64,000 bases of DNA from a virus. The stretch lies in IMG/VR virus record IMGVR_UViG_3300042891_000377, positions 40,172-104,171 of that record. One strand, given 5' to 3'. Below, piece by piece: positions 2,057 through 40,829 of the stretch. The notes below the pieces were generated by a model, which had not been told where the DNA came from, did no database searches, and saw nothing but the letters and a program-made list of their open reading frames with translations. The position numbers were made by a program, and so were the translations under genes. Position 1 is the stretch's first letter, and the number at the start of each line of letters is the position of its first letter.

Positions 2057-2802
2057 TGACAAATTATAATAAAATTAAATTGGCTCAGGGGGTATCGGTA
2101 TTAGCCACAATACTAACCTTGACATTTGAATTTGATTTAACATTGTTACTGTTGGGATTAGCGGTCAGTTGGGTATTCTATTGTATAGGATTATCAATTT
2201 GTCTACATAAATTATCTAGTCATCGAACTTTTGAACCTAAAAACGCTGTAATTAAATACATTTTGTTATGGTTTGGTACAGTAGTAACTATGGGTAGTAC
2301 TATTAATTTTGCCGCTGGGCATAGACAGCATCACAGAATGAGTGATACTCCTGATGATCCTTACTGTTTAACCGGTACATTATGGCATAAAGTTAAACTA
2401 TTCTTTTATTGGTTCCCAGCATATAAGATAAGTCCGTTAATTATTAAAGACCTATTACGTGACAAGGATCATGTTCGCTTTAATAACAACTATTGGAAGA
2501 TACTGTTACTTTATCCTATTATCTTATTAGCAATCGACCCTGTGTGGTTTGGATACTTTTATGCATTGCCTGTTACTTACGTATTGTTGGGCATGGGCTA
2601 TGTAACAGTTATTGCGCATTTACGTTTAGGTAACAGACCCTACGACACTAACGATAATAGTTGGGATAGTAAACTATTTGCTCTATTGCTAGCAGGTGAA
2701 GGATATCATAATACTCATCATGCTTATCCAGGATGGAGCACCTTTGGCCCATTGGATGTTGCAGGGCACGTAATAGAATTAATAAGGAAGAAAGATGTCT
2801 AA
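2056..2802 (+). CDS. Second membrane fatty acid desaturase
   Basis: His boxes HKLSSH, HRQHH, GEGYHNTHH; paralog of upstream gene. Confidence 0.85.
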   Translation: MTNYNKIKLAQGVSVLATILTLTFEFDLTLLLLGLAVSWVFYCIGLSICLHKLSSHRTFEPKNAVIKYILLWFGTVVTMGSTINFAAGHRQHHRMSDTPDDPYCLTGTLWHKVKLFFYWFPAYKISPLIIKDLLRDKDHVRFNNNYWKILLLYPIILLAIDPVWFGYFYALPVTYVLLGMGYVTVIAHLRLGNRPYDTNDNSWDSKLFALLLAGEGYHNTHHAYPGWSTFGPLDVAGHVIELIRKKDV

Positions 2803-3889: not shown

Positions 3890-4387
3890 ATGATTAGGAC
3901 ACCTATCTGCAATCTTTTAATGGTCGCCATGCTAATTGCCGGCGCCAATATCGTGCAGGCTGGGGAAATGGTCCATACCTTTAACAGTCCGGCATTCCAC
4001 GGACAAGGATTTGGTATACATGCCCTTACAATTAAGCAATTAGAAGATCAAGCCAAAGACAAGCGCGAATCTGCCGCAGAAGCTATACAGGCTAAAGCAG
4101 AATCTGCTGCACTTAATACTCCGCAGGCACGCTTTATTGCTAATCTGGAATCGAGAATTTATAGTCAGTTGGCTAAACAACTAACTGATAGTATGTTTGG
4201 GGAAGGTGCTACTTGTACTACAGCAGGCATAGTATGTGGTAATATTCCAAACTTAGGTGGTAACAGTATCCAGTGGAGTCTTGGAGCAGGTAGTGATAAT
4301 GGTTTGATTATTATCACCATACAAGATTTAAGTAATGTTGACAATGTAACAACTATGAAAGTACCGGCGGGCTCATTTTATTTTTAA
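3890..4387 (+). CDS. csgF: Curli assembly protein CsgF-like
   Basis: Signal peptide then GEMVHTFNSPAFHG (CsgF N-terminal motif); FIANLESRIYSQLAKQL; directly upstream of csgG. Confidence 0.8.
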   Translation: MIRTPICNLLMVAMLIAGANIVQAGEMVHTFNSPAFHGQGFGIHALTIKQLEDQAKDKRESAAEAIQAKAESAALNTPQARFIANLESRIYSQLAKQLTDSMFGEGATCTTAGIVCGNIPNLGGNSIQWSLGAGSDNGLIIITIQDLSNVDNVTTMKVPAGSFYF

Positions 4388-4396
4388 GGATGATAA

Positions 4397-5263
4397 ATGA
4401 ATAAAACACTTATATCCTTATTAATAGCCGCGCTGTTAACAGGATGCGCTACAGGTAGTGTTATTAAAGAAAAAATAACAGGTGAGCAATTTGACAAGCC
4501 TGAGATAGTACGTGAAACATATTTTACTAAACCAGAGAATAAGGTATTACCTCCAAGTGGTGGGCCTATTCCTATAGCAGTATATAGTTTTCAGGATAAA
4601 ACTGGACAGCGTAAGAATATACCTAACGTGGCTAGTTTTAGTACTGCGGTAACACAGGGTGCAGAAGCATATCTAATTGGTGCTCTACAAGACGTAGGCG
4701 ACCAACGTTGGTTTACTGTGTTAGAGCGTGTGGGCTTAGATAACTTGATTAAAGAGCGTCAAATGATTCGTCAAATGCGTGAACAATATCAAGGACGTGA
4801 CGCTAAGGCATTACCACCAATGATGTTTGCTGGTGTTATTGTAGAAGGAAGTGTAACAGGTTATGATAGTAATCTGCTTACAGGAGGTAGTGGTATGCGC
4901 ATACTAGGTATCGGAGCACAAACGCAATACCAAAGTGATACAGTTACAATTACTCTAAGAACAGTAAGCGTTAATACAGGTGAAGTATTAACAACTGTAA
5001 CAGTTACTAAAACAGTGTTAAGCTACATGGACAAACTTGGTATACTAAAGTTTGTTGAAGAAGGCACAAAAGCCGTTGAAGCTGAAACTGGTATGAGTAT
5101 CAATGAAAGTGTCAATAAAGCAACTAGCCTAGCAGTTAAGGCTGCTGTAATTGCTACTATTCGAGAAGGAGTGCGTAAAGGGCACTGGGCATTTAAGGAA
5201 GAGCCTAAGCCTGTAGTACAAACAGATGGTGTAAAATACCCTTTGTTAGAAACAAAAAAATAA
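4397..5263 (+). CDS. csgG: Curli secretion channel CsgG (outer-membrane lipoprotein)
   Basis: Lipobox LTGC; AVYSFQDKTGQRK, STAVTQGA, WFTVLERVGLDNLIKERQMIR. Confidence 0.92.
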   Translation: MNKTLISLLIAALLTGCATGSVIKEKITGEQFDKPEIVRETYFTKPENKVLPPSGGPIPIAVYSFQDKTGQRKNIPNVASFSTAVTQGAEAYLIGALQDVGDQRWFTVLERVGLDNLIKERQMIRQMREQYQGRDAKALPPMMFAGVIVEGSVTGYDSNLLTGGSGMRILGIGAQTQYQSDTVTITLRTVSVNTGEVLTTVTVTKTVLSYMDKLGILKFVEEGTKAVEAETGMSINESVNKATSLAVKAAVIATIREGVRKGHWAFKEEPKPVVQTDGVKYPLLETKK

Positions 5264-5296
5264 TAATAGGATTTTAAAAATCCAAGGAGCAACACG

Positions 5297-6082
5297 ATGA
5301 AATATAATTTAAAAGCAACGGTAAGTATGATGTTTTTAGCATTGTCAACATCGGTAATGGCCGCAGGCCCAACAGGTCCTAACCGTGTTTACATTGAACA
5401 ATTGGGTAACACCAATAATGTTACAATTGAACAAGTTGGCGGCACTAACGATGTTGGTGGTACCGCTGGTAGTGTAGCAGTTGACGCAACAGGTCTAAGT
5501 ACATTAACAGTAACAGCACCTAGTACAAGTAACTATGCTACAATTAACGGCAGTAATAACGGTGTAACTATAACGCAAACTGGTGACGATAATCAATCAC
5601 AGTACAACATTAAAGGTGGCAATAACAGCTTTACAAGTACTCTAACTGGTGATGGTAATCAAAGTAAACTTACTATTGGTAATAGCACCACTAATGGTAT
5701 GCGTAATACTGTTACTGAAACTGTTACAGGTAGTACTAATATGTTGATTACTAATATTGTTGGTAGTGACAACGCATTATCAACTACTATCACTGGTAGC
5801 AGTAACCAACTGACTACTGATGTAACTACTAGTAATGCTGATATTACCAACACTATTAGTGGTAGTAACAATATATTTAATATACAACAACGAGATGCTG
5901 CAGGCAGTGCTGGCCATAGTTTAATCACATCAACTACAGGTGATTATAACAGTATTACTACACAGCAACAAGGTACAAATGATACTACATTGAATATTAG
6001 TACAACTGGTGATCATAACACTATTACTATACGTTCAAGTAGCAGTGCTATAGTAAGCCCAGTATCAGCAATAGTGAGATAG
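5297..6082 (+). CDS. Secreted curlin-repeat (CsgA/CsgB-like) beta-solenoid protein
   Basis: Signal peptide; repeated IxQxGxxN / GxxN units rich in T, N, G, S; follows csgG. Confidence 0.75.
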   Translation: MKYNLKATVSMMFLALSTSVMAAGPTGPNRVYIEQLGNTNNVTIEQVGGTNDVGGTAGSVAVDATGLSTLTVTAPSTSNYATINGSNNGVTITQTGDDNQSQYNIKGGNNSFTSTLTGDGNQSKLTIGNSTTNGMRNTVTETVTGSTNMLITNIVGSDNALSTTITGSSNQLTTDVTTSNADITNTISGSNNIFNIQQRDAAGSAGHSLITSTTGDYNSITTQQQGTNDTTLNISTTGDHNTITIRSSSSAIVSPVSAIVR

Positions 6083-6085
6083 TCA

Positions 6086-7177
6086 ATGAAACTATTGCTT
6101 GCTTTAGCGTGCTTAGTAGCAACTACTAACGCATGGGCAGGCATTGGAACTGTAAGCGATACTAAAGGTACCGCTTGTTCAATAGAGCGTGCTAAACAGA
6201 CCCTGCCTGGCAACAAAGGTGCGACCATAGAAAGTATGGATACCTATGTTACAGGCGGCTGTGTTAGCAATATCACATTTAAAGATGACACCAAAGTAAA
6301 AATAACAGAAAACAGTCGACTAATGATAGACGACTTTGTTTACGATCCTAAAAAATCCGACGCAGGTAAACTAGCTCTTAAAGTAGGTATGGGCACAGTA
6401 CGTTATGCCTCTGGACAAATTGCTAAAAACAATCCACAAAAGGTAGATATTAAAACACCCACAGCTAGTATTGCTGTTCGCGGTACAGACTTTAACATGA
6501 CTGTAGACGAAGCAGGACAGAGTTTAGTTATTCTTGTGCCTAGCTGTAAAGATGGTGAAAAGATTAAAGAATACGAGCTAGAAGAAAACTTATGTAAAGT
6601 GGGCAAGATCGAAGTCAGCACACTGGCTGGTGTAGTTACCTTAGACAAAGCATTTGAAGGTACGTATGTAACCAGTGCTAACATGATGCCTAGTCCTCCA
6701 GCTATTATTAACACAATTGAAAGTAAGATTGGTAACAGTCTTATTATCACTCGCCCACCCGAAATTGTCAAAGCTAGTAAAGAAGCAGGTAAAAGCAAAC
6801 GTGATCTAGAACAAGAAGAACTAGAAGCTATTCAAGCAAGTCAACTTGCTCAACGTATAGCTAAAGAAGGTGAAGCTAAAGCTGTAGTGTTGCCTTATAG
6901 CTTTGACAGTGGTAAATCAGGATGTAATCCGGCAATCAATGTCTGCGTTAAATGGGAAAATCCGGATGGTGAAAGCATACAGGCCAAAGGTCGAGGTATA
7001 GCGTTTCGTCAAAGTGAAGATCACTATGCAGAAGTTAAAACACAGGGCTACGAAAGTAATACGTCAATTGAAATAATTCACGATGATAATATTGCCTCAG
7101 CTACAATTGGTTCGGGCGATCCAGGTGGCAATGTAGTGCGTATCAAACAGAATTCTGGAGTGTTAAGACGACAATGA
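6086..7177 (+). CDS. Secreted FecR-domain protein
   Basis: Signal peptide; ITFKDDTKVKITENSRLMID; TPTASIAVRGTDF (FecR signature). Confidence 0.8.
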   Translation: MKLLLALACLVATTNAWAGIGTVSDTKGTACSIERAKQTLPGNKGATIESMDTYVTGGCVSNITFKDDTKVKITENSRLMIDDFVYDPKKSDAGKLALKVGMGTVRYASGQIAKNNPQKVDIKTPTASIAVRGTDFNMTVDEAGQSLVILVPSCKDGEKIKEYELEENLCKVGKIEVSTLAGVVTLDKAFEGTYVTSANMMPSPPAIINTIESKIGNSLIITRPPEIVKASKEAGKSKRDLEQEELEAIQASQLAQRIAKEGEAKAVVLPYSFDSGKSGCNPAINVCVKWENPDGESIQAKGRGIAFRQSEDHYAEVKTQGYESNTSIEIIHDDNIASATIGSGDPGGNVVRIKQNSGVLRRQ

Positions 7178-8301
7178 AACGGCTCCTTGTAATCTTATTA
7201 TTAGTTTGCTCCAATACCTGGGCCGCAGGACTTGCTGGACTTAATTATCAGAACTATGCCGCAGGTGGTGCTATGCCATCATATACGCAAGATGCTAATG
7301 GAAACATCACTAATCGCACACTACTATCAACTGGAACTGTGAATACGGTGGGATTAACTACTAGTAGTGGAGCAGGCTTGCCTACTCGCAGTGATGGATT
7401 TATAGTTCGTTTCTATGGTTACATCAATATAGAAACAGCAGGTACATATTACTTTGGCGGGCAAGCAGACGACGGTATCCGTATTAAGATTAATAACATA
7501 TCTGTGGTTAATAGTTGGATAGAATCTGGCGGCGCATTTAGAGAAGGCAGCATTACTTTGTCAGCAGGAGTTGTTCCGGTAGAAGTAATGTATTACGAGA
7601 ACGGCGGTGGACAAATGGTTAACTTCCAATGGTTTATGAACGGCTATTGGCAGATTGTACCTACAGCGTCGATAGCTACAGATACTACCTATTGGGCGCC
7701 TGCGGCTCCTGTACTATGTTGCGGCGGCAGTTCGTCAAGTTTTAATGCTAGTCCATCTAATGTAACAAAAGTACAGTCATACGCCACAAGGAATACCAAT
7801 GACAGTCAGGTGTACATAGACCAAATTGGTAATGATAACGAGATCACAGTTAACCAAACAGGTACTAAAAATAACTACACAGAATACAATAGTAGTGGTA
7901 GTTTCAATACCGTTAATATCTCACAAACTGGTAATAGTTCAACAACAGCAAACTACGTAGAACTAAATGTCAACGGTGATAGTAATATAGTAAATCTAAC
8001 GCAGCAGAGTACAGGTGGTGCCAAGGGTATCTACGCTACAGTTAACGATGACAATAATAATGTAACAGTCTTACAGAAAGACGGTGGTAATGCTTACTTA
8101 AACTTAAACCTAAGTGGCGGTAATAAAACTGTAGACATAACGCAACAAGGCAGTGCTGCACACATGGCTGACATTACTCTAACTGGAGCAGGTGCTAGAA
8201 GTTTAAACTTAAATCAGCAAGGTAGCACACAACAGTTTTACAGTATTAATAGTAGTTGCGCTAGTGCCTGTCAGGCAATAACAGTAATACAAGGACAATA
8301 A
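7174..8301 (+). CDS. Secreted PA14-domain plus curlin-repeat protein
   Basis: PA14 motifs GTYYFGGQADDGIRIKIN and YYENGGG; C-terminal QxGxxN repeats. Confidence 0.75.
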   Translation: MKRLLVILLLVCSNTWAAGLAGLNYQNYAAGGAMPSYTQDANGNITNRTLLSTGTVNTVGLTTSSGAGLPTRSDGFIVRFYGYINIETAGTYYFGGQADDGIRIKINNISVVNSWIESGGAFREGSITLSAGVVPVEVMYYENGGGQMVNFQWFMNGYWQIVPTASIATDTTYWAPAAPVLCCGGSSSSFNASPSNVTKVQSYATRNTNDSQVYIDQIGNDNEITVNQTGTKNNYTEYNSSGSFNTVNISQTGNSSTTANYVELNVNGDSNIVNLTQQSTGGAKGIYATVNDDNNNVTVLQKDGGNAYLNLNLSGGNKTVDITQQGSAAHMADITLTGAGARSLNLNQQGSTQQFYSINSSCASACQAITVIQGQ

Positions 8302-8334
8302 CAGCAGAATCAGTGCTGTAACGTTATTAATAAC

Positions 8335-8371
8335 TGTTGTATTTTTACAACATTGTTATCAAAAAACAACA
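8335..8371. promoter_or_regulatory. Tandem palindromic operator-like sites upstream of the porin promoter
   Basis: TGTTGTA-tttt-TACAACA (8335-8352) followed by a degenerate copy TGTTATC-aaaa-AACAACA. Confidence 0.45.
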
Positions 8372-8376
8372 AAAGG

Positions 8377-8405
8377 TTGACTCTCCATTATAAATACTGT
8401 ACACT
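8377..8405 (+). promoter_or_regulatory. Sigma70-like promoter with an embedded late promoter (TATAAATA 8389-8396)
   Basis: TTGACT-17-TACACT. Confidence 0.6.
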
Positions 8406-8452
8406 GATAGTATAACATATTAGTGTTATCCAATAAAAGGAGAAGTATCGTA

Positions 8453-9664
8453 ATGAAGAAATTATTATTAGCAACATTATTAGCAAGTATGTATTCAACT
8501 GCGAACGCTGGCATTCAAATTCCAGCTGGTGATTGGACTCTAGACATCGGCGGCGTTGTAAACGCTTACTACACAAACACACGCGGCACAGGTGATGCTG
8601 TAGTTGGTGGCGCCGGTGGCCCTAATACCAATGGTCAACGCAATGAATCAAATATTACAACTGGTCTATTACCAAACGTATTATCAGTTTCTGGTAAATC
8701 ACGTCAAAATGATTTAGACATTGGTTTCACTATTGCAATCAATCCAGGCGCTTCAACAACAGCAGCTGGTGATCAAGGCGCTAACCAAGAAAATCGTCAA
8801 GCATTTTTGACTATCGGTGATAAATCATGGGGTAGTGTAAAACTAGGTAAAGACCTAGGTATTTTCGCTAGTGATGCTATCTTAAACGACATGACATTGT
8901 TAGGTGTTGGTTCTGGTGCTGGCGCACTAGCTGGTAACACAACTACATTGGGTCGTATTGGTACTGGTTATATGTACGCTGACTGGAAATCACAAATTGC
9001 TTACACATCACCAAACTTTAATGGATTTCAATTCACAGCAGGTGTAACACAAGCATGGAATGCTCAAACAGCTGACTTAAATGCAGCAACAGCAGGTGTA
9101 CAAGCTGCTTCAGCAACTTCAACAGGCCGTGGTGGTGCACAACCAGCTTTCGAAGGTAAAGTATCTTACTCATTAGCAGGTCCCATTGCTGCTAAAGTTT
9201 GGTCAAGTGCCATTACACAAAAAGTTGAAGGTGTTACTGGTGCCAGTGCCGATGACCGTGCTTATGCTTGGGACGTTGGTACAAACTTAACAGCTGGTCC
9301 ATACGGTTTAACTGCTTATTACTTTGATGGTAAAGGTATTGGCCGTACACTTCAATTAGCTGATGGTTTTGATACTACTGGTCGTCGTCGTGATTCAAAC
9401 GGTGGTTATGTACAAGGTACATACACATTGCCAACAGCAACTAAACTTGGCGTAAGCTGGGGTCAAAGTAAACTAGATCGTAACAGTGGTGAAACAGCAA
9501 CCGCATTAGTTTCGAAAAACGAAATGTGGACACTTGGTGCTTACCACCCACTTACTAAATCAGTTAACCTAGTAGCTGAATACTCAGACGTTAAGTCAGA
9601 AGCACAAAACGGTGCTGAAGGCAAATCACGCTCAGTATCGGCAGGTGCTATCTTATTCTTCTAA
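8453..9664 (+). CDS. Gram-negative general porin
   Basis: AGGAG RBS, signal peptide, ENRQAFLTIG..WGSVKLGK, IAYTSPNFNGFQF, C-terminal Phe. Confidence 0.88.
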   Translation: MKKLLLATLLASMYSTANAGIQIPAGDWTLDIGGVVNAYYTNTRGTGDAVVGGAGGPNTNGQRNESNITTGLLPNVLSVSGKSRQNDLDIGFTIAINPGASTTAAGDQGANQENRQAFLTIGDKSWGSVKLGKDLGIFASDAILNDMTLLGVGSGAGALAGNTTTLGRIGTGYMYADWKSQIAYTSPNFNGFQFTAGVTQAWNAQTADLNAATAGVQAASATSTGRGGAQPAFEGKVSYSLAGPIAAKVWSSAITQKVEGVTGASADDRAYAWDVGTNLTAGPYGLTAYYFDGKGIGRTLQLADGFDTTGRRRDSNGGYVQGTYTLPTATKLGVSWGQSKLDRNSGETATALVSKNEMWTLGAYHPLTKSVNLVAEYSDVKSEAQNGAEGKSRSVSAGAILFF

Positions 9665-9688
9665 GATTAACTTCTTAGTCTAATAATT

Positions 9689-9715
9689 AAAAAGCCCACT
9701 CCGGTGGGCTTTTTT
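9689..9715 (+). terminator. Intrinsic terminator
   Basis: AAAAGCCCAC-tccg-GTGGGCTTTTTT. Confidence 0.85.
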
Positions 9716-9742
9716 ACGGAGATAACATCATTTGGTTAAAAA

Positions 9743-9849
9743 TGTAACAAATTGTAAAAATATTGCTTGACAGGTGGCCGGTTATCATATACACTAGTAA
9801 ACATATAGCAAATCACATTTGTAACAAGATGTAACAAACTATATAAATA
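9743..9849 (+). promoter_or_regulatory. xoxF promoter region: sigma70-like promoter, flanking direct-repeat pairs and late promoter
   Basis: TTGACA(9767)-17-TACACT(9790); TGTAACAAAT-TGTAAAAA (9743-9760); TGTAACAAGA-TGTAACAA (9820-9837); TATAAATA 9842-9849. Confidence 0.6.
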
Positions 9850-9946
9850 AAGTTGTTATTAAGGGTCCTTAGTAACATTTTCAAAACTTGTGGTCCGCGG
9901 CATACAGCAACCGGCACGTTTTTATTTAAACACAAGGGAGATGTAA

Positions 9947-11812
9947 ATGAAGTTAAAATCAATTAAAGTAGCATTAAGTTTAGTTTTAGCATTACCAGCA
10001 GTAGCTTTCGCAGCAGCTGACCAAGAAAAAGCAATGAAAGACGCTAACAACTGGGTTGGCCCACGTGGTCAATACGACAACCAAGGTTACAGTGCATTAG
10101 CACAAGTTAACAAAGGTAACGTTAAAGGCCTTAAAGCTGCTTGGACATTCGCTACCGGTGTAAACCGTGGCCACGAAGGTTCACCAGTAGTTGTTGGTAA
10201 CATGATGTACGTTCACACAGCGTTCCCAAACAACGTTTACGCTCTTGACTTAAACGACAATCAAAAAATCGTTTGGTCTTACTTCCCAAAACAAGATCCA
10301 TCAGTACAAGCTGTATTGTGCTGCGATAACGTTTCACGTGGTCTTGGTTACGGCGACGGTAAAATCTACCTACAACAAAACGATGGTAACTTGGTTGCTT
10401 TAGACGCTAAAACTGGTGCTAAAGTATGGTCAACTTTAATCAACGATCCAAAAGTCGGTGCTACTAACACTAATGCTCCACACGTGATCAAAGATAAAGT
10501 ACTGACAGGTTGTTCAGGTGCTGAATTTGGTGTTCGTTGCTTTATCGCAGCTTACAACTTAAAAGACGGTTCATTAGCATGGAAAGCATACTCAACAGGC
10601 CCTGATGCTGAAATGTTAATCGGCGAAGGCTTCAACAAAGATACACCTGAGTACAGCGCACTATCAGTTTACCAAGACGTAAACGGTGGTAACAAATTAG
10701 GTGGTTCTTTCAACACTATCCCTAATGACAAATTAGTAATTGGTCAAAAAGAGTTAGGCACACGTACATGGTTGAAACCACAAGCAGTTAAAGATGGTTG
10801 GCAACATGGTGGTGGCTCTGTATGGGGCTGGTGGCCGTATGATGCTCGTACAAACTTGGTTTACTACGGAACAGGTAACCCATCAGTTTGGAACCCAGAT
10901 GTACGTCCAGGCGACAACAAATGGTCTATGACTGTTTTCGCTCGTGACTTAGACACTGGCGTTGCAAAATGGGGTATGCAAATGACTCCACACGATGAGT
11001 GGGATTACGATGGTATTAACGAAGTAATCTTGTTCGACAAAGGTGGTAAAACATACGCATGGCACCATGACCGTAACGGTTTTGCTTACACTTGGAATGC
11101 TGGTAACGGTAAATTAGTTGCTGCAGAAAAAGTACACCCATTCGTTAACTGGGCAACTGGTGTTGATTTGAAAACAGGCGTGCCTAACAAATTGGCTACT
11201 GCTTCAACTCACCAAGATTACAATGCAAAAGGCGTTTGTCCAGCTGCTTTGGGTACTAAAGACCAACAACCAGCTGCGTACTCACCAAAAACTGGTTTAA
11301 TTTACACTCCATTGAACCACGTATGTATGACATACGAGCCAGTTGAGTCTAAATACGTTGCAGGTCAACCATGGGTTGGTGCTACATTGACCATGTTCCC
11401 AGGTCCAGACGGTGTAATGGGTGGTTTCGGTGCTTACGATCCAATGACAAACAAAAAAGTTTGGTACAACAAAGAGAAATTCTCTGCTTGGGGTGGTGCT
11501 TTAACAACTGCTTCAAACTTAGTATTCTTCGGTACTTTAGATCGTTGGTTTAAAGCTGTAGATGCATCATCAGGTAAAGAACTATGGAAATTCCAAGTTG
11601 GTTCTGGCGTGATTGGTAATGCATTCACATACGGTCACAAAGGTAAACAACACGTTGGCGTGCTATCAGGTATCGGTGGCTGGGCTGGTGTGGCGATGAA
11701 CCTTGGTATGACTAACCCAACAGACGCTTTAGGTGCTGCTGGTGGTTATGCTGAATTAACAAAATACAACGCGGCTCCTGGCGGCGGTGCATTAACAGTA
11801 TTCAGTCTTTAA
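9947..11812 (+). CDS. xoxF: Lanthanide-dependent PQQ methanol dehydrogenase XoxF (probably the Methylophilaceae XoxF4 type)
   Basis: Signal peptide; vicinal CC in LCCDNVSRG; metal ligands in GAEFG and GTGNP; DEWDYDG has the extra Asp that marks Ln-binding MDH (MxaF has DYAG). Confidence 0.93.
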   Translation: MKLKSIKVALSLVLALPAVAFAAADQEKAMKDANNWVGPRGQYDNQGYSALAQVNKGNVKGLKAAWTFATGVNRGHEGSPVVVGNMMYVHTAFPNNVYALDLNDNQKIVWSYFPKQDPSVQAVLCCDNVSRGLGYGDGKIYLQQNDGNLVALDAKTGAKVWSTLINDPKVGATNTNAPHVIKDKVLTGCSGAEFGVRCFIAAYNLKDGSLAWKAYSTGPDAEMLIGEGFNKDTPEYSALSVYQDVNGGNKLGGSFNTIPNDKLVIGQKELGTRTWLKPQAVKDGWQHGGGSVWGWWPYDARTNLVYYGTGNPSVWNPDVRPGDNKWSMTVFARDLDTGVAKWGMQMTPHDEWDYDGINEVILFDKGGKTYAWHHDRNGFAYTWNAGNGKLVAAEKVHPFVNWATGVDLKTGVPNKLATASTHQDYNAKGVCPAALGTKDQQPAAYSPKTGLIYTPLNHVCMTYEPVESKYVAGQPWVGATLTMFPGPDGVMGGFGAYDPMTNKKVWYNKEKFSAWGGALTTASNLVFFGTLDRWFKAVDASSGKELWKFQVGSGVIGNAFTYGHKGKQHVGVLSGIGGWAGVAMNLGMTNPTDALGAAGGYAELTKYNAAPGGGALTVFSL

Positions 11813-11826
11813 TCTGTAGTTAACCT

Positions 11827-11853
11827 AAAAAGCCCACTTCGGTGGGCTTTTTT
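11827..11853 (+). terminator. Intrinsic terminator
   Basis: AAAAGCCCAC-ttcg-GTGGGCTTTTTT; near-identical to those at 9689 and 40800. Confidence 0.88.
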
Positions 11854-11874
11854 ACCTCTGCAATAAATACTTTT

Positions 11875-11973
11875 ATGTATACTTGGCGCGAAACGTTTAT
11901 CTTTATTGAAATCATTCTATTCTTCACACTCGTGTTTTCTATCCCCTACATAGAACAACTAATCCAACCGTAA
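11875..11973 (+). CDS. Small hydrophobic protein, 32 aa (not in ORF track)
   Basis: MYTWRETFIFIEIILFFTLVFSIPYIEQLIQP; TAAATA at 11864-11869 just upstream. Confidence 0.4.
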   Translation: MYTWRETFIFIEIILFFTLVFSIPYIEQLIQP

Positions 11974-12007
11974 CAAAAATTTAATCTGTTTGTAACACTA
12001 CTGTAAT
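11968..12007 (+). promoter_or_regulatory. Pho box array (PhoB-type binding sites)
   Basis: Four heptamers at exact 11-bp period: CCGTAAC 11968, ATTTAAT 11979, TTGTAAC 11990, CTGTAAT 12001 (consensus CTGTCAT), upstream of phosphate genes. Confidence 0.75.
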
Positions 12008-12029
12008 CTTTGTGTGTTTAAATATACAT

Positions 12030-12779
12030 ATGACCACAAGATATAAGACCATTTGTATATCCGACTTTCACCTTGGCACTAAAGATGCTAAGGCTGATCT
12101 ATTAAACAATTTCCTTAAAAATCACACCTGCGAAAATTTATTTTTAGTTGGTGATATTATTGACGGTTGGAAGATACAGCAGAACAAGTGGAAGTGGCAT
12201 CAAAGCCATACTAATGTTATTCGTCGTATATTAGGTTATAGCAAGCGAGGTTGTAATGTAACCTATGTAACTGGCAATCATGACGAGTTTCTTCGCCCGT
12301 TGGTAAGTCATGGATTCAATCTCGGCAATATTCGTATGGTAAATCAAGCAGAATATCGCAGTATAGATGGCGAGTTGTTTCTAATTACCCACGGCGACTT
12401 ATTTGACGGTATTACTAGATTAGCACCGTGGTTAGGATTTTTAGGTGATAAAGCATATGATGTAGCTTTATGGTTTAATAACTATTTTAACTTTGCTCGT
12501 AGAAAATTAGGATTTGGTTATTGGAGTTTAAGCAAGTTTTTAAAAGCTCGCGTTAAGAAAGCAATGGGTTTTGTATTTAAGTTTGAACTTAACATGTTAC
12601 AGTATGCTCAAAAACAAGGGTATGATGGTGTTATCTGCGGACATATACACACACCCGAAATTAAACACATCAACGGCATGATTTATATGAACGACGGTGA
12701 TTGGGTTGAAAGTTGTAGTGCCCTAGTAGAAGATTATGAAGGACGCTGGGATATTATATATTGGAATGAAATTAAATAG
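12030..12779 (+). CDS. plcP: Metallophosphoesterase, PlcP-like phospholipase C (LpxH-like family)
   Basis: ISDFHLG, LVGDIIDGW, GNHDE, HGDLFD, YWSLS, CGHIH, NDGDWVESCSALVE; Pho box and pstS context. Confidence 0.75.
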   Translation: MTTRYKTICISDFHLGTKDAKADLLNNFLKNHTCENLFLVGDIIDGWKIQQNKWKWHQSHTNVIRRILGYSKRGCNVTYVTGNHDEFLRPLVSHGFNLGNIRMVNQAEYRSIDGELFLITHGDLFDGITRLAPWLGFLGDKAYDVALWFNNYFNFARRKLGFGYWSLSKFLKARVKKAMGFVFKFELNMLQYAQKQGYDGVICGHIHTPEIKHINGMIYMNDGDWVESCSALVEDYEGRWDIIYWNEIK

Positions 12780-12791
12780 GAGAGAATGTAA

Positions 12792-13793
12792 ATGACGATT
12801 CAACAGATTAAAACGATAATGTATTATGTAGTAATAGCATTTGCTGTATCAATGGCTGGATTAAAACAAGTTCAGGCAGCAGACAAAATGGTCAAAATAG
12901 ACGGCAGTTCGACAGTCTATCCAATATCAGAAGCAGTAGCAGAAGAATTTCAAAAGAAAACAGGGGTTAAGGTAACAGTAGGTGAAAGTGGTACAGGTGG
13001 CGGCTTTAAAAAGTTCTGTCGCAGTGAAACTGACATCAGCGATGCTAGTCGTCCTATTTCACAAAAAGAGATGGATGCTTGTAAAGAAGCAGGTGTACAG
13101 TACATCGAATTGCCCGTTGCCTACGATGCTCTAACTGTAGTAGTAAACAGCAAAAATGGCTGGGTTAAATCATTTACAGTTGAAGAATTGAAAAAAATAT
13201 GGGCACCGGGTAGTTCAGTTAAAAACTGGAATCAAGTAAATCCAGCTTATCCAAATCAACCACTACAATTATTTGGCCCAGGTACAGCAAGTGGTACATT
13301 TGACTACTTCACCGAAGCTATCAATGGTAAGGCAAAATCCAGTCGCAGCGACTACACACCAAGTGAAGATGACAATGTTCTAGTAACTGGTGTAGCAGGT
13401 AATTCGGGGGCACTAGCTTACTTTGGTTATGCTTATTACGAAGAAAACAAAGATAAATTACGTGCCATTCCTATCATTGCTAAGGGCTCAACAACGCCAG
13501 TATTACCAAGTCCAGAAGCAGTTATGAATGGTACCTATCAACCATTAAGCCGCCCACTGTTTATCTATGTAAATGCAACAGCGGCTGCGTTTAGACCAGA
13601 AGTAAAAGCATTTGTAAATTTCTATTTAGAAAATGCACCTAAGTTAGTAAAAGAAGTAAAGTATGTTCCATTACCAGCAGACGACTATGCGGCAGTAACA
13701 GAGCATTTCAAAGCACTAAAACCAGGTACAGGGTTTAACGGTACTCCAGAAGTAGGCATTAAAATTAAAGACTTAATTAAACGAATCAAATAA
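12792..13793 (+). CDS. pstS: Phosphate ABC transporter substrate-binding protein
   Basis: [45 protein letters not shown]. Confidence 0.95.
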
Positions 13794-13802
13794 GGAAACA
13801 TT

Positions 13803-15212
13803 ATGACATTAAAAAATATTATCACAGGTTTATTCATAGCATCAGCATTAATTGCTACACCAGTATATGCAGACAGCACTAACGACATCGTGAATGCGTT
13901 GGTGATGAAAGGCGTGTTAACCGAAGAAGAAGGTGCCTTAATTAACAAAGGTCGTACTGGAGAAACAAGCGCAGTTAAAAAAGAAAAAGATACCACTGTA
14001 CATGCGGCTAGCAAAATGAATATACGTGGCTACTTACAGATACGAAATACTACTATGCTCAGTGGTGACGAAGGAGTTAACCTTTGGTCAGATCGATCTG
14101 TAGGTGACAAAAATTCACTCGCTGACCAAGACAAAAACTTCCTAATTCGTCGTGCTCGTATTATTATATCAGGTTCGGCAGGTGATCGTTTAGATTACTA
14201 TATTCAACCCGACTTTGCTAGTACAGCAGGTACCACAGGTAACGTTGCGCAACTACGTGATGCTTATGGTGACGTGAATCTAACCAAAGATAAAGTGCAC
14301 CGTGTGCGTGTGGGTCAAAGTAAAGTACCATATGGATTTGAAAACTTACAATCTTCACAAAATCGTTTAGCACTTGATCGTGCCGACGCATTTAACAGCG
14401 CAGTACGTGATGAGCGTGATTTAGGTGCGTTCTACTACTACACACCAGATAATGTACAAAAGTTGTTTAAAGAAATACAAGACAGTGGTTTAAAACATTC
14501 AGGTAACTACGGTATGTTTGGCGTTGGTATATATAACGGCCAGGGTGCTAACCAACAAGATCGTAACGATAATTATCATACAGTAGCACGTTTTACTTAC
14601 CCTTGGAAAACAGAAAGCGGACAAATATACGAAGCTGGTATACAAGGTTATACAGGCAAGTATGTAAGAACAGGCAGTGCGTATAGAAGAAACATGGGCA
14701 ACAACGTTTACGCAACTAAAACACCGACATTAGAACCGGGCAACACAACTGGATTTAAAGACGAACGTATGGGTGTAAGTTTTATGATGTACCCACAACC
14801 GTTTGGTATACAAGGTGAGTGGAACTGGGGTAAAACTCCTGGCTTAGATACTGCTGCTAGTACTGATGGTATTATCAAAGAAACTAACTTGAACGGTGGT
14901 TACATTCAAACTATGTATAAAATTGATAACTTTAAAGTATTAGATACCAATGGTACACTAATTCCATTTGTTAGATGGCAATACTTTGATGGTGCGTCAA
15001 AAGCAGAAACTAACTCACCAATGAACAAGGTTAACGATTGGGAGATGGGTGCTGAATGGCAAATCGCGCCAGAGGTTGAACTTGTGGCTTACTATCATAT
15101 GATGAATCGTAGCAACCTAGTAACAGGAGCATCGGCTACTACACTAGTAAAGCAGGACTATGCTAACTTTAAAGCAGATGCCCTGCGTGTTCAACTACAG
15201 TATAACTTTTAG
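13803..15212 (+). CDS. Phosphate-selective porin (OprO/OprP family)
   Basis: Signal peptide, FLIRRARI, GQSKVPYGFENLQSSQNR, C-terminal QYNF; follows pstS. Confidence 0.8.
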   Translation: MTLKNIITGLFIASALIATPVYADSTNDIVNALVMKGVLTEEEGALINKGRTGETSAVKKEKDTTVHAASKMNIRGYLQIRNTTMLSGDEGVNLWSDRSVGDKNSLADQDKNFLIRRARIIISGSAGDRLDYYIQPDFASTAGTTGNVAQLRDAYGDVNLTKDKVHRVRVGQSKVPYGFENLQSSQNRLALDRADAFNSAVRDERDLGAFYYYTPDNVQKLFKEIQDSGLKHSGNYGMFGVGIYNGQGANQQDRNDNYHTVARFTYPWKTESGQIYEAGIQGYTGKYVRTGSAYRRNMGNNVYATKTPTLEPGNTTGFKDERMGVSFMMYPQPFGIQGEWNWGKTPGLDTAASTDGIIKETNLNGGYIQTMYKIDNFKVLDTNGTLIPFVRWQYFDGASKAETNSPMNKVNDWEMGAEWQIAPEVELVAYYHMMNRSNLVTGASATTLVKQDYANFKADALRVQLQYNF

Positions 15213-15220
15213 GAAACATT

Positions 15221-15310
15221 ATGTTTGAACTTTTTATAGATGCTGTAAAAGATATTAGCGGTATATTGGCGATAATGGCGGCTATTGGTATATGGTCATT
15301 TTTACTATAG
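15221..15310 (+). CDS. Small membrane peptide, 29 aa (not in ORF track)
   Basis: AGGA RBS; MFELFIDAVKDISGILAIMAAIGIWSFLL. Confidence 0.4.
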   Translation: MFELFIDAVKDISGILAIMAAIGIWSFLL

Positions 15311-15443
15311 ATTGCAAGAAAATTACTGGTCTTTAATGATTTTACGTATGTTATTTAGGTCAAAACGGTGTTACTATATGTATAAGTACTAGTAACAACA
15401 AAACATGTTGTGGTACTTTTAATAATTTACTAGGAGAAATACT

Positions 15444-15515
15444 ATGTGGACTAAACCAGCAGCCACTGAAATGCGTTTCGGTTTTGAAGTAACTCTTTAC
15501 GTAATGAACCGTTAA
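15444..15515 (+). CDS. pqqA: PQQ precursor peptide PqqA, 23 aa (not in ORF track)
   Basis: AGGAG RBS; MWTKPAATEMRFGFEVTLYVMNR with the E-x-x-x-Y motif; terminator follows. Confidence 0.95.
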   Translation: MWTKPAATEMRFGFEVTLYVMNR

Positions 15516-15537
15516 TTTTAAGGTCCATAACGTAAAC

Positions 15538-15560
15538 AAAGCCTCTTAGGAGGCTTTTTT
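15538..15560. terminator. Intrinsic terminator after pqqA (possibly bidirectional)
   Basis: AAAGCCTC-ttag-GAGGCTTTTTT. Confidence 0.75.
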
Positions 15561-16010
15561 ATTGGCCCGTGTTTCTGCCAAGGATGCTCTAATTTTTGCT
15601 CGTGTTTCTTCACTAACGACATGCCCTTTACGACTTGCGGCCCAATTAGCCATATGTTCTTCAGACTTCTTTTTGCCCTTCATTGCTTCAGAACGTTTTT
15701 TATTGGCTTCTTCTAACTTACCACTTGCTCGTTGTCTTTCTGTTCTAAGTTTACAACTTTCTCTGAGTTTTGCTTTAGATTCCTCAGACATGGGTTTCTT
15801 GCTGCCTTTACTCCTTGCCATAAACATTGCCTCATCTTGTCCCATTTGCCCAGACAATGCTTGCCAAGCACAATAGTCTTGCCAATTGCCGTGTTGTTCG
15901 TACAGCAAGCGATGCGCTTCTGCGTGAGCTTCTACGGTAAGTTCTATTAGGTTACTAGGATCGTCGGTGCCGCCTAGGTATTGAGGTAAGATGTGATGTA
16001 TATGTTTCAT
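15546..16010 (-). CDS. HNH homing-endonuclease-like protein with NUMOD3-like C-terminus
   Basis: HHILPQYLGGTDDPSNLIELTVEAHAEAH; repeats MSEESKAK, KSEEH, VSEETRAK; TAAATA on minus strand at 16016-16021. Confidence 0.75.
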   Translation of the reverse strand: MKHIHHILPQYLGGTDDPSNLIELTVEAHAEAHRLLYEQHGNWQDYCAWQALSGQMGQDEAMFMARSKGSKKPMSEESKAKLRESCKLRTERQRASGKLEEANKKRSEAMKGKKKSEEHMANWAASRKGHVVSEETRAKIRASLAETRANKKAS

Positions 16011-16041
16011 ACAGTTATTTATTATTGTTACTTCATAACCT

Positions 16042-16091
16042 ATAAACAAAACTTATTGCGACCATTTAAAAATACAATTAAAAAAACCTAT
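16042..16091 (+). promoter_or_regulatory. OxyR-like binding site upstream of ahpC
   Basis: ATAA-N7-TTAT-N7-ATTT-N7-CAAT (16042-16078) vs ATAG-N7-CTAT-N7-ATAG-N7-CTAT; extra ATTA-N7-CTAT at 16077-16091. Confidence 0.55.
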
Positions 16092-16164
16092 TAATCAGGC
16101 TTTTTTTATTAAAAATTTTAATATATAATATATGTACATTAACAATTTAATCAAGGGGAAGTAA

Positions 16165-16731
16165 ATGAGTTTAATCGGAAAACAAGTAGAAGCATTTAAA
16201 GCACAAGCATACCGTCAAGGTCAGTTTGTAGAAGTATCAGAGCAAGATTTAAAAGGTCGTTGGAGTATAGTATTCTTTTACCCAGCAGACTTTACATTCG
16301 TCTGCCCAACAGAATTAGCAGACTTACAAGACGTATACGCTAGTGACTTTAAAGCAATGGGGGTAGAAGTATACAGCGTAAGCACAGACACACACTTTGT
16401 ACACAAAGCATGGGCAGATGCTACAGACACAATCCGTAACATCACCTACACAATGATTGGCGATGCTAACCATCAGTTAGCTCGACAATTTGGTGTGCTA
16501 ATTGAAAGCGAAGGACTAGCTGATCGCGGTACGTTTGTTATTGATCCAGATGGTGTTGTACAGATCATTGAGATCAATCCAGGGGGTGTTGGCCGTGACG
16601 CAAAAGAACTATTGCGTAAAGTTAAAGCGGCAAAATACACTAGAGAGCATCCGGGTGAAGTATGCCCGGCTAAATGGCAAGAAGGAAGTGCTACCTTAGC
16701 ACCAAGTTTGGATTTAGTAGGTAAACTATAA
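16165..16731 (+). CDS. ahpC: Peroxiredoxin AhpC
   Basis: [13 protein letters not shown] and GEVCPAKW. Confidence 0.96.
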
Positions 16732-16736
16732 AAACA

Positions 16737-16763
16737 AAAAGCCCCAATTAAGGGGCTTTTTTA
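16737..16763. terminator. Bidirectional terminator between ahpC and cytochrome c
   Basis: AAAAGCCCC-aattaa-GGGGCTTTTTT. Confidence 0.8.
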
Positions 16764-17060
16764 TCACTGAGTTAACACCCATTTAACTAGCGTTTTAATA
16801 TCCTCGTCTTTGATCTGTGGACTCATTGGCGGCATTGGGATAGGACCCCATACTCCACTACCACCTGCTTTAACCTTTGCTACTAGTTTAGCCTCTACAT
16901 CTTGACCTTTGTATTTCTTAGCAACGTCTTTATACGCTGGACCTAAGATCTTATGATCAACTGCGTGACAAGCTAAACACCCACTTTTCTGTGCCAATGC
17001 TTGGTTAGCATTTGCTGTGATGCAACTACCTAATAATAATACTGCTAAAATAGTTTTCAT
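16764..17060 (-). CDS. Class I cytochrome c (c551/c552, c8 type)
   Basis: Signal peptide, CLACH haem motif, GPAYKDVA, GSGVWGPIPMPP with axial Met. Confidence 0.92.
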   Translation of the reverse strand: MKTILAVLLLGSCITANANQALAQKSGCLACHAVDHKILGPAYKDVAKKYKGQDVEAKLVAKVKAGGSGVWGPIPMPPMSPQIKDEDIKTLVKWVLTQ

Positions 17061-17175
17061 TTTAGACCTTTCATAAAAGTTAACTTACAATGTATTTAAC
17101 GCCGATAAACTATATCTATTTATTTTTGGTAGAATTTTGATTGACGAAAATTCCAAAAGAGTAAATAATAGTACT

Positions 17176-19200
17176 ATGATGAAAAATAAACTTAAAAAAC
17201 TCCTAGTCAGTCCGTGGACTGCGTTAATTACATTAGCTGTTATTGTAGTAGTAATCCTACAAGGACCTACATTCGTAGAGTCGGTTAGACTTAGATACTT
17301 TGACACACTGATTAGTGGCAAGGCTCCTACAGAAAATAATATCTATACTGTAAACATAGATGAAGCAACATTAGACAAGTATGGGCAATGGCCATTTAAG
17401 CGTGACAAGTACGCAGACCTAATTGATGACCTGTACAAACATGGCGCTGGCCTAGTTGTTTGGACTGTTATGATGCCAGAAGCAGACCGTCAAGGTGGCG
17501 ATGCGGCCTTGGCATTAGAGTTAGAGGACCATCCAGTTATCCTTACTAACATGCCCAGTGAAAAGTCTAAGAACATCCCACGTAAACCAGGCAGTGCTGT
17601 TATTGGTGACGAGTACAGCGACACAATTATCACCTATCCGGGTATCATTGCTAACATTCCAGAACTAGAACGTAATGCCGCTGGTGTTGGTATTGCTAAC
17701 ACATTCCCAGAGGTAGATGGTGTTAATCGTCGACTACCATTGTTCGTTGGTTATGACAATAACGTATATCCAAGTATTCCGTTAGAAGTATTACGTGTTA
17801 TATCGCAAGACTCAACATTCCAAGTTAAACTAAATGAATTTGGTGTTGAGAAAATGCGCATACCAAGTTTCCGTCCTATCAGCACAGATAGCTTAGGTCG
17901 TATCTGGGTAGACTGGAGTCAAAAGTCAACACAGGTATCAGCAGTCAACTTGCCTACAGACTTTGGTGGTGCTGTGGTTATTGTAGGCCTAAGTGCCGCA
18001 GGTTTAGCTAACCCAGTGCCAACTAGTATCGGTAGCGTATGGCCACAAGATATGCAGGCCGCTGTTATTGGTACGTTAGCTAACAACGTAAACATTGAAC
18101 GTCCATTCTGGGCAGACAATGCTGAACTGTTGGCTCTTATTGTTATCTCACTTATTATTTTAATCTTGAGCCGTTGGGTATATGTTGGCCTAGGAGTTGG
18201 CGTTGTATTGCTTGCGGCAATTACACCTGCAACAATGTATGCGTTTGCGCACTATAACTTCTTGTTTGATGCCATTGTGCCCACAGCAGGCGGTGTACTG
18301 GTTATGCTACACGCTTATGGTGTTAAGTTTATTAGCGAGTTCTTACAGAAACAACAGATCAAGAAACAATTTGGTAGCTACGTTAACCCTACTATTGTTG
18401 AACGCTTACAAAAGAATCCAGAGCTGATTAAACTAGGCGGCGAACGTAAAGAACTTTCAATTGTTATGACTGACCTACGTGGCTTCACAACACTTGGCGA
18501 ATCGTTTGGTGATGATGTAGAAGGACTTACACAGATCATGAATGACTACATGACAGCATTGAGTATTCCTGTGCTAAAGAATGATGGTACTTTAATTAAG
18601 TTTATCGGTGATGCTAGTTTACACGTACACGGTGCTCCGTTGGATGATGCTAATCACGCTAAGACTGCGGTGCGTACTGCACTCGAAATGATCAAAGCCA
18701 TTGAAGACTTTAACGTAGAACTTGTTGCTAGTGGCCGGCCACCGGTTGGTATGGGTGCTGGTGTTAACACAGGTGAAACCTTAATTGGTAACATTGGTGC
18801 TAAGAGCAAGTTTGGTTATGACGTTCTAGGTGACAGTGTAAGTACTGCGGCACGTTTAGAAGGACAAACTAAGTCATATGGTGTGTTACTAATCATCGGT
18901 CCTAAGACTGCTGAATACTGTAAAGATGACTTCCCTGTAGTATGGTTAGACAACATTGCCGTTAAAGGTAAAACTATTGGCTTAGATATCTACACAGTTG
19001 GTCGTACTAATCTTTATATGCACGAGGAGTATCGTAAAGAATATACTCGTGGTAATTGGGGCAAGGCTATTGTATGGGCTAAAAAATTAGTCAACAACGA
19101 TGATGTTGATATTAAACATTACTATGAACTAATGATTGAACGTATGGAACAGGGTGTTCCTGCAAACTGGGATGGCACTTATCACGCCACTTCAAAATAA
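17176..19200 (+). CDS. CHASE2-domain class III adenylate cyclase
   Basis: NIDEATLDKYGQWPF (CHASE2), 3 TM helices, TDLRGFT, KFIGDA, YDVLGDSVSTAARLEG; TAAATA at 17162. Confidence 0.9.
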   Translation: MMKNKLKKLLVSPWTALITLAVIVVVILQGPTFVESVRLRYFDTLISGKAPTENNIYTVNIDEATLDKYGQWPFKRDKYADLIDDLYKHGAGLVVWTVMMPEADRQGGDAALALELEDHPVILTNMPSEKSKNIPRKPGSAVIGDEYSDTIITYPGIIANIPELERNAAGVGIANTFPEVDGVNRRLPLFVGYDNNVYPSIPLEVLRVISQDSTFQVKLNEFGVEKMRIPSFRPISTDSLGRIWVDWSQKSTQVSAVNLPTDFGGAVVIVGLSAAGLANPVPTSIGSVWPQDMQAAVIGTLANNVNIERPFWADNAELLALIVISLIILILSRWVYVGLGVGVVLLAAITPATMYAFAHYNFLFDAIVPTAGGVLVMLHAYGVKFISEFLQKQQIKKQFGSYVNPTIVERLQKNPELIKLGGERKELSIVMTDLRGFTTLGESFGDDVEGLTQIMNDYMTALSIPVLKNDGTLIKFIGDASLHVHGAPLDDANHAKTAVRTALEMIKAIEDFNVELVASGRPPVGMGAGVNTGETLIGNIGAKSKFGYDVLGDSVSTAARLEGQTKSYGVLLIIGPKTAEYCKDDFPVVWLDNIAVKGKTIGLDIYTVGRTNLYMHEEYRKEYTRGNWGKAIVWAKKLVNNDDVDIKHYYELMIERMEQGVPANWDGTYHATSK

Positions 19201-19938: not shown

Positions 19939-20724
19939 ATGAAATATTTTATAGTATTAATACTGTTTCTATCAACGTCAGCTATAGCAAAACCTATTAC
20001 TGCTAAAAGTTTTTTAGTGGCAGATAACACAGGCGAAGTTATATTAGAAAAGAATGCCGACCGTGTACAGCCCATTGCTAGCATTACTAAACTAATGACA
20101 GTAATGGTAGTGCTAGACGCCCACCAAAACTTAGATGAAATGATCACATTGGATCGCAGATTAGTTGGCAAGTATCACACTCGATTGCCTCGCAGTGTTA
20201 AACAACTTACTCGTGGTGAATTGATTGATCTTGCTATTGTTAAGAGTGATAACCTTGCCGCATATACATTAGGCGCAAATTATCCGGGCGGTTTAACACG
20301 ATGTATTGCTGAGATGAATCACATTGCGTTTGTACTAGGTATGTCAAATACCACATTTGCTGACCCAACAGGACTAGACGCAGACAACGTCAGTAACGCT
20401 CGTGACTTAGGCAAATTAGTTTTAGCCGCAAAAGAATATACGGAGATTACCGAAGCAAGTGGTAAACCTAATGTAAGTATCAAAGTTAAACGTCGTTGGT
20501 GGCAGTTTGGTAACACTAATCCAATGGTTAGAAATAGCAATGATGTACGAGTGAGTAAAACAGGTTATATAAATGAAAGTGGTGGTTGTGTGGTTATGCT
20601 ACTTGATACTGAATTAGGACAACGTGTGATTGTATTGTTGGGTAGTAAAAATACTCGTACACGTTTCCCAGAAGCACAAAAAATCGCTGTAACAGTTAGT
20701 AACAGCGATATTAATGTTGATTAG
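19939..20724 (+). CDS. D-Ala-D-Ala carboxy/endopeptidase (peptidase S11, PbpG-like)
   Basis: PIASITK (SxxK), SDN, KTG; signal peptide. Confidence 0.9.
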   Translation: MKYFIVLILFLSTSAIAKPITAKSFLVADNTGEVILEKNADRVQPIASITKLMTVMVVLDAHQNLDEMITLDRRLVGKYHTRLPRSVKQLTRGELIDLAIVKSDNLAAYTLGANYPGGLTRCIAEMNHIAFVLGMSNTTFADPTGLDADNVSNARDLGKLVLAAKEYTEITEASGKPNVSIKVKRRWWQFGNTNPMVRNSNDVRVSKTGYINESGGCVVMLLDTELGQRVIVLLGSKNTRTRFPEAQKIAVTVSNSDINVD

Positions 20725-40441: not shown

Positions 40442-40447
40442 AGAAAT

Positions 40448-40797: not shown

Positions 40798-40798
40798 A

Positions 40799-40827
40799 GA
40801 AAGCTCACTTCGGTGGGCTTTCTTTTT
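40799..40827 (+). terminator. Intrinsic terminator after tmRNA
   Basis: GAAAGCTCAC-ttcg-GTGGGCTTTCTTTTT. Confidence 0.8.
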
Positions 40828-40829
40828 GC

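Follow-up and report, generated by a model that had tools for sequence, protein, structure and literature searches.

We analysed a 64,000-nucleotide stretch (the window; bases 40,172–104,171) of the linear IMG/VR virus record IMGVR_UViG_3300042891_000377 (104,171 bp) and found that it carries a full-length xoxF gene, coding for a predicted lanthanide (Ln)- and pyrroloquinoline quinone (PQQ)-dependent methanol dehydrogenase, together with pqqA, the gene for the precursor peptide of the PQQ cofactor. The body of this xoxF is nearly identical to the allele of cultured Methylophilaceae, and both of its ends are of phage type. We consider it likely that the contig covers part of the genome of a T4-like myovirus of freshwater Methylophilaceae carrying host-derived metabolic genes, with xoxF and pqqA as their conserved core; that xoxF lies in a phage-specific cassette of promoter, leader, signal peptide and terminator, its body overwritten by recombination with the allele of the current host; and that the phage would sustain the methanol oxidation of its host with PqqA and with XoxF4 from this host-refreshed cassette. 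The direction and the mechanism of the exchange are inferred.

The XoxF protein matched TIGR03075 (the PQQ methanol/ethanol dehydrogenase family) over its full length with 613.5 bits against a cut-off of 480, and its top solved relatives were the Ln-dependent XoxF 6oc5 (672 bits) and 6dam. A Sec-type signal peptide ends in AFA, followed by AADQEK; the vicinal pair Cys125-Cys126 lies within LCCDN; the motif DEWDYDG holds Asp353 and the Ln-specific Asp355; and Glu193, Asn311 and Arg376 are likewise in place. The mature part is intact, with every metal- and PQQ-ligand residue kept. The signatures of Ln-dependent XoxF in sequence, i.e. the extra Asp of the D-x-D motif, the Glu and Asn ligands and the vicinal Cys pair, are all present, and the phage enzyme is predicted to be of the Ln-dependent type. 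The roles of these residues (ligands, catalytic Asp and Ln-specific Asp, the latter replaced by Ala in the Ca-dependent MxaF) are presumably those seen in MxaF and XoxF structures. The first-pass annotation of the window, made from its letters alone, had described a full-length XoxF with signal peptide, vicinal Cys pair and DYD motif, and this description was borne out in each of its parts. In a tree with 80 Methylophilaceae sequences the phage protein was nested among these, as sister to those of the isolates RH-M32 and MMSCM63 (support 99), in agreement with the XoxF4 affiliation that had been expected. As the tree was built without XoxF1, 2, 3 and 5 references, the XoxF4 label rests on host taxonomy: XoxF4 is confined to Methylophilaceae (PMC6028718), whose XoxF4 enzymes have been characterised (PMC6028718). 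In INPHARED (GenBank phage records) no XoxF was found, the only matches being weak ones to glucose dehydrogenases in Acinetobacter phage records.

At the DNA level, positions 10001–11813 are 98.4% identical to the chromosomes of RH-M32 and MMSCM63, and the core of the gene (10650–11800) is ~99.8% identical to both. Phage-type stretches occur at 9908–10009, at 10486–10588 and from 11806 onward, the remainder being 98–100% identical to the host isolates. The upstream region, the signal-peptide codons (to ~10009), the final 7 nt of the gene as well as the terminator match other phage contigs, and the internal phage-type patch comprises ~100 nt with synonymous differences. This clustering of phage-type sites towards the two ends of the gene and within a single internal patch was significant in a runs permutation test (p < 1e-4). 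Compared with the host XoxF4 of RH-M32, the mature phage protein differs by one residue, with all ligands and the Cys-Cys pair present, whereas the signal peptide has 10 substitutions and a 4-residue deletion; the phage copy also comes with a promoter, a leader and a terminator of its own and, unlike the host gene, is not adjoined by xoxJ and xoxG. A related contig from another sample (L007) has the same host-like core with a different 3′ breakpoint, near 11635. Together with the allele distribution and the leader described below, this pattern is most simply read as a long-standing phage xoxF cassette with repeated host-to-phage allele replacement, analogous to that of psbA in cyanophages.

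Altogether, xoxF was found in 13 IMG/VR contigs, i.e. the window contig, eight others found first (L005–L012), on which our comparison of related loci is based, and four found later. In six of the eight, pqqA lies near xoxF on the same strand, which, along with the phage-type flanks and the recurrence of xoxF, supports the earlier assignment of both genes to the phage. L006 has in common with the window the csgF/csgG-FecR-PA14 genes upstream of xoxF and the CHASE2 cyclase downstream, and L007 the downstream series pqqA-HNH-AhpC. Since pqqA directly follows xoxF in L007, positions 11856–15310 of the window represent an insertion. L007 and L009 also encode AhpC close to xoxF, and L010 and L011 gave weaker matches to it; none of the eight related loci yielded the porin, the cytochrome c or the PstS/porin O/P block. 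Because pqqA accompanies xoxF in most of these loci and the latter genes in none, the conserved unit, as judged from sequence comparison, is xoxF plus pqqA, often with AhpC. By the same comparison, xoxF has the marks of a phage auxiliary metabolic gene: it appears to be host-derived, is flanked by phage genes and recurs in related phages.

The phage XoxF proteins are polyphyletic and match different host lineages. Those of the window and L007 group with RH-M32/MMSCM63, those of L005 and L008 with the isolates LSUCC0401/0665, that of L006 with Uisw_099_01, and those of L009–L012 fall inside the Candidatus Methylopumilus clade, which amounts to at least four host-matched positions in the tree; a single phage clade was rejected (approximately unbiased test, p = 3e-55, log-likelihood difference 357). 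In addition, a XoxF5-type gene is present at positions 5938–7749 of an unrelated 78.7-kb viral contig (L136, IMGVR_UViG_3300048670_001593). Its product shares 54% protein identity with the XoxF of the window, and the gene has 60% GC within flanks of 48–50% GC. The mature part is 95–97% identical to proteins of uncultured Betaproteobacteria, Burkholderiales and Rhodocyclaceae, and the first 4% of the protein (signal peptide) is unaligned in many of the closest matches. No pqqA was detected near this gene in the 13.5 kb examined.

All phage xoxF copies have a leader in common (listed for the window, L005, L006, L009–L012, L119, L122, L123 and L127/L136), composed of the boxes GTGGTCCGCGG and CAACCGGCAC and a variable insert of 6–38 nt between them, which forms a hairpin in most relatives. 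The leader, together with its ribosome-binding context, also precedes the XoxF5-type gene of the unrelated contig. It was found neither at 80 host xoxF loci nor in 5 host genomes, and its single occurrence in 301 Methylophilaceae genomes did not exceed that of a reversed-pattern control. A search of positions 8300–17200 against Rfam revealed no known RNA family, all matches being under the gathering scores. RNA structure of the leader is not established, because its folding was no more stable than that of shuffled sequence (z −0.2 to 1.0) and its outer stem, being invariant, offered no covariation. The leader is a candidate regulatory element that may act either as RNA or as a DNA site. The leader pattern also matched 16 high-GC viral contigs, in all but one of which an identical 32-nt stretch precedes a capsid-like open reading frame (ORF); these matches were regarded as coincidental and unrelated to xoxF. 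TTGTAACA repeats upstream of xoxF were not enriched in the window.

We lean, by a small margin of confidence, towards viewing xoxF in these phages as a cassette of promoter, GTGGTCCGCGG-hairpin-CAACCGGCAC leader, signal peptide and terminator, within which the segment coding for the mature enzyme is exchanged time and again for the allele of the current host, and, with the same reserve, towards placing the hosts of the XoxF5-type phage, which shares the leader, among other Betaproteobacteria. If true, the leader would be a cis-element not described before and linked to lanthanide methanol dehydrogenases encoded by viruses, and xoxF would be the methylotroph counterpart of psbA allele exchange.

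The predicted control sequences around the gene are phage-specific. Both the porin gene upstream and xoxF are preceded by a putative sigma-70-like promoter, TTGAC[AT]-17-TACACT. The motif TATAAATA occurs five times against 9.9 expected, i.e. with no overall enrichment; only one of the five copies lies in coding sequence, against 8.5 expected by the gene model, and shares bases with the final codons of the ORF before it, and all five are placed 23–105 nt upstream of a gene start on the same strand. Depletion from coding sequence and upstream placement fit a T4-type late promoter, a function that TATAAATA may have. Of the late-type promoters claimed for porin and xoxF in the first-pass annotation, the motifs themselves are present before both genes; enrichment was not seen, and among relatives the copy upstream of xoxF is kept only in L006. 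Porin and xoxF are each followed by a UUCG/UCCG hairpin terminator, the two being near-identical, and a copy with one mismatch is located at the 3′ end of the transfer-messenger RNA (tmRNA) gene (40803–40818). With three matches against 0.01 expected, the terminator proposed to be common to the three genes was upheld.

Host genomes, with the locus order xoxF-xoxJ-xoxG-xoxG, contain pqqC and 4–5 copies of pqqA. None of XoxJ, XoxG, PqqC and PqqE was found in the 104-kb contig, with the host genomes serving as positive control for PqqC, and host XoxG used as a query gave no match in it. A radical-SAM gene at 36796–38109 was considered as pqqE and rejected, as it encodes a twitch-domain radical-SAM protein instead. 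The phage would therefore supply the enzyme and the cofactor precursor and depend on the host for the remainder, and the reliance on host XoxJ, XoxG and PqqB-E proposed earlier is consistent with the content of this fragment. In an infected cell, the phage may express a Sec-exported XoxF4 whose mature form is one residue off that of the host, and its pqqA would add extra PqqA, the peptide consumed in PQQ synthesis; the host would contribute lanthanide uptake, PqqB-E, XoxJ, and XoxG as the cytochrome to which XoxF passes its electrons. In this way methanol oxidation, and with it the energy supply of the host, would be kept running as host gene expression fails, a role parallel to that of psbA in cyanophages.

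Several points weigh against this explanation. The two junctions between phage-type and host-type sequence are known at the level of assembled contigs; a 1.15-kb core ~99.8% identical to the host would also be expected from a graph-merging artefact, provided that host and phage alleles were already alike; and six of the eight related contigs found first (L007–L012) end inside xoxF. Furthermore, expression and activity of XoxF are predictions from sequence, the putative T4-type late promoter is based on five copies of TATAAATA, and the record is a fragment (CheckV completeness 19%), so that the absence of xoxJ, xoxG and pqqB-E applies to 104 kb only.

The near-identity of the xoxF body to the host allele by itself raises the question of assembly, and contigs breaking inside xoxF indicate that assemblers struggle at this gene, as is typical of a repeat common to several genomes. 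It could be argued that the phage does carry xoxF, but that the host-identical core consists of host reads merged into the phage path by bubble popping or repeat collapse, in which case the recent gene conversion would be unreal. We regard this as improbable. In comparison with the available phage alleles, the overlap of host-type and phage-type sequence at the switch points is ~23 nt (5′) and 5 nt (3′), which is less than joins at the usual final k-mer sizes would need. An artefact of this kind would also not be expected to leave a synonymous phage-type patch within the host-like body, nor to recur in the separate sample of L007 with another 3′ breakpoint. Finally, the same layout, with phage leader and signal peptide before a bacterial mature part, is repeated in the unrelated XoxF5-type phage.

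Marginally less probable still is that the genes are phage-borne and do not serve respiration, either because carbon from formaldehyde or formate is directed to nucleotide synthesis or because they are neutral passengers beside a homing endonuclease. The variable content of the island at 8.4–17.1 kb, with gain and loss of PstS, porins and cytochrome c and an HNH endonuclease alongside, would suit passengers, and redirection of carbon to purine synthesis was proposed by Coutinho et al. (PMC7678222). However, the linkage of xoxF and pqqA is held across phages with alleles from four host lineages, with a dedicated conserved leader retained, the mature enzyme is intact in all its ligand residues, and neutral cargo is not expected to be kept and repeatedly refreshed.

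The phage origin of the contig is evident from its gene content: a primase, a DnaB-like helicase, ribonucleotide reductase, virion structural and tail-fibre proteins, GroEL, DnaK and DNA ligase, along with a tmRNA. Among the virion proteins, one shares 45% identity with its counterparts in T4-like cyanomyoviruses, which agrees with the ‘T4-like’ label of the methylotroph phages from Lake Baikal discussed below. The genome size of ~0.5 Mb implied by CheckV was set aside, as the structural proteins indicate relatives among the T4-like cyanomyoviruses, with 170–240 kb. The host assignment follows from the best relatives, all of them Methylophilaceae, and from the restriction of XoxF4 to this family. 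The window has a GC content of ~38–39% against 46–48% at the best host loci, and host genomes exceed 90% DNA identity at xoxF alone, with nearly all other stretches at 64–77%: porin, PstS, porin O/P, AhpC and cytochrome c fall into this range, pqqA reaches 77–90%, and nothing in the window outside the island is above 71%. It is very improbable that the contig stems from the host, as a plasmid or genomic island, or that a phage contig was misassembled with host DNA over the full length of the island: every island gene has a Methylophilaceae homologue and the contig is linear with a low estimated completeness, but virion, tail-fibre and replication genes flank the island on both sides, its genes are distant from those of hosts save for xoxF (98%) and the 72-nt pqqA (≤90%), the GC of the window is well under that of hosts, the phage-type terminator is common to the tmRNA gene 29 kb away, and the synteny of the flanks is kept in the independent contigs L006 and L007.

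Other host-like cargo comprises two fatty-acid desaturases, a D-Ala-D-Ala carboxypeptidase, the twitch-domain radical-SAM protein, a tryptophan-halogenase-like protein and DnaK (window 1226–2802, 19939–20724, 36796–38109 and 54143–55747; L003 17472–19388). GroEL is encoded at window positions 42976–44613.

The coordinates of the features are compiled in Table 1. PqqA matched PF08042 with 39.6 bits (cut-off 21.1), and its E-x-x-x-Y motif reads EVTLY, in support of the earlier call; a 43-codon ORF just 3′ of xoxF (11842–11973) was tested as PqqA and rejected. The general porin and the c8-type cytochrome noted before were also recovered. Host paralogues of the porin show 65–77% DNA identity. The cytochrome c matched PDB entries 2d0s (104 bits) and 1dvv (94 bits) as well as Pseudomonas c551 entries, and has 70% amino acid identity to a single host orthologue; with its CXXCH motif (CLACH) it falls into the c551/c552 class, whose class I cytochromes have ~80 residues when mature. 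It was rejected as XoxG/cytochrome cL, a protein of ~170–200 aa encoded beside xoxF/xoxJ, given its 98 aa and no TIGR03872 match at E ≤ 0.01; one may speculate that this c551/c552 protein could move electrons further along the periplasmic chain. The proposal that porin and cytochrome c belong to a conserved methanol oxidation kit was not supported, as both were seen only in the window contig among the compared loci and the cytochrome is a generic c551/c552 type. Nor is the region a single four-part module, since a metallophosphoesterase, PstS, porin O/P, an HNH endonuclease and AhpC are encoded there as well.

Gene content around the HNH endonuclease varies between relatives, making this a hyperplastic region. 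The CHASE2 cyclase is kept downstream of the island in L006 (53% amino acid identity) and L007. Upstream of the island (window 3890–8301) lies a curli-type secretion set, consisting of a CsgF-like ORF, CsgG (PF03783, 170 bits), a curlin-repeat protein, a FecR-domain protein and a protein with PA14 and curlin repeats; it is syntenic upstream of xoxF in L006.

Table 1. Features of the island, its neighbourhood and the tmRNA gene, in window positions
Feature	Positions	Strand	Remarks
Porin promoter	8377–8405	+	putative; sigma-70-like TTGACT-17-TACACT with TATAAATA (8389–8396) in the spacer
Porin	8453–9664	+	Porin_4, 79.8 bits; signal peptide; Gram-negative general porin
Porin terminator	9689–9715	+	hairpin GCCCAC-UCCG-GUGGGC, then T run; core 9694–9709
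xoxF promoter region	9767–9849	+	putative; sigma-70-like TTGACA-17-TACACT (9767–9795) and T4-late-like TATAAATA (9842–9849)
xoxF leader	9890–9917	+	boxes GTGGTCCGCGG, variable spacer, CAACCGGCAC; ~30 nt before the start codon
xoxF	9947–11812	+	621 aa; predicted XoxF4-type Ln/PQQ methanol dehydrogenase
xoxF terminator	11827–11853	+	hairpin, core 11832–11847; phage-type, common to L007, unlike host 3′ sequence
Phosphate-acquisition insert	12030–15212	+	between xoxF and pqqA; absent from L007
Metallophosphoesterase	12030–12779	+	
PstS	12792–13793	+	
Phosphate-selective porin O/P	13803–15212	+	
pqqA	15444–15515	+	23 aa; followed by bidirectional terminator 15538–15557
HNH/NUMOD3 homing-endonuclease-like gene	15546–16010	−	also in L007
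AhpC peroxiredoxin	16165–16731	+	TIGR03137, 316 bits
Cytochrome c	16764–17060	−	98 aa; CLACH; periplasmic c551/c552 (c8 class)
CHASE2-adenylate/guanylate cyclase	17176–19200	+	CHASE2 sensor domain fused to cyclase domain
tmRNA	40427–40843		ARAGORN call marked with an asterisk; 29-residue tag peptide

The novelty of such genes had been left to a check of the literature, and this kind of phage gene is already known, because Coutinho et al. (2020, Microbiome 8:163; PMC7678222) described methanol dehydrogenase and PqqA in the T4-like Methylophilaceae phages VP_139 and VP_266 from Lake Baikal, claiming the first viral report of the two. Those phages have low GC, predicted Methylophilaceae hosts and genes for ribonucleotide reductase and radical-SAM proteins, and a boost of host methanol oxidation was proposed as part of their role (PMC7678222). 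As in VP_139 and VP_266, a methanol dehydrogenase large subunit and PqqA are found here in a low-GC T4-like phage of Methylophilaceae; the earlier report makes no mention of XoxF type, lanthanides, cytochrome c, porin, peroxiredoxin or recombination (PMC7678222). Beyond that study, we found no further report of a phage methanol dehydrogenase in the literature. New in comparison with it are the XoxF4 type, the near-identity to cultured hosts, the mosaic allele, the polyphyly of alleles and the phage-specific leader.

In cyanophages, psbA (photosystem II D1) is a phage copy of a key, highly expressed host protein of energy harvesting, and its alleles follow host lineages and contain mosaic host/phage segments. 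By analogy, the phage xoxF would also be a host-matched, mosaic copy of an energy gene. It differs in that its pathway is periplasmic oxidation of one-carbon (C1) compounds and not photosynthesis, and in that XoxF, known here from its gene, is an exported soluble enzyme that depends on a rare-earth metal and on a peptide precursor of its cofactor. The gene pmoC, for a subunit of particulate methane monooxygenase, is carried by large freshwater phages that infect methanotrophs; these are likewise lake phages with a gene of C1 oxidation, with a different enzyme and different hosts.

Methylophilaceae are major methanol consumers of lakes and coastal seas and, to our knowledge, XoxF is the only methanol dehydrogenase in their streamlined lineages. 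With viral copies of xoxF present, infection may sustain or reshape methanol turnover and the demand for lanthanides, and surveys using xoxF as a marker gene may mistake viral genes for bacterial ones. The near-identity to RH-M32 and MMSCM63 names a likely host and makes the hypothesis derived from metagenomes in 2020 testable in the laboratory. The conserved xoxF leader is a candidate new regulatory element, and mosaic, host-matched xoxF alleles would widen the pattern of allele exchange known from psbA to C1 metabolism.

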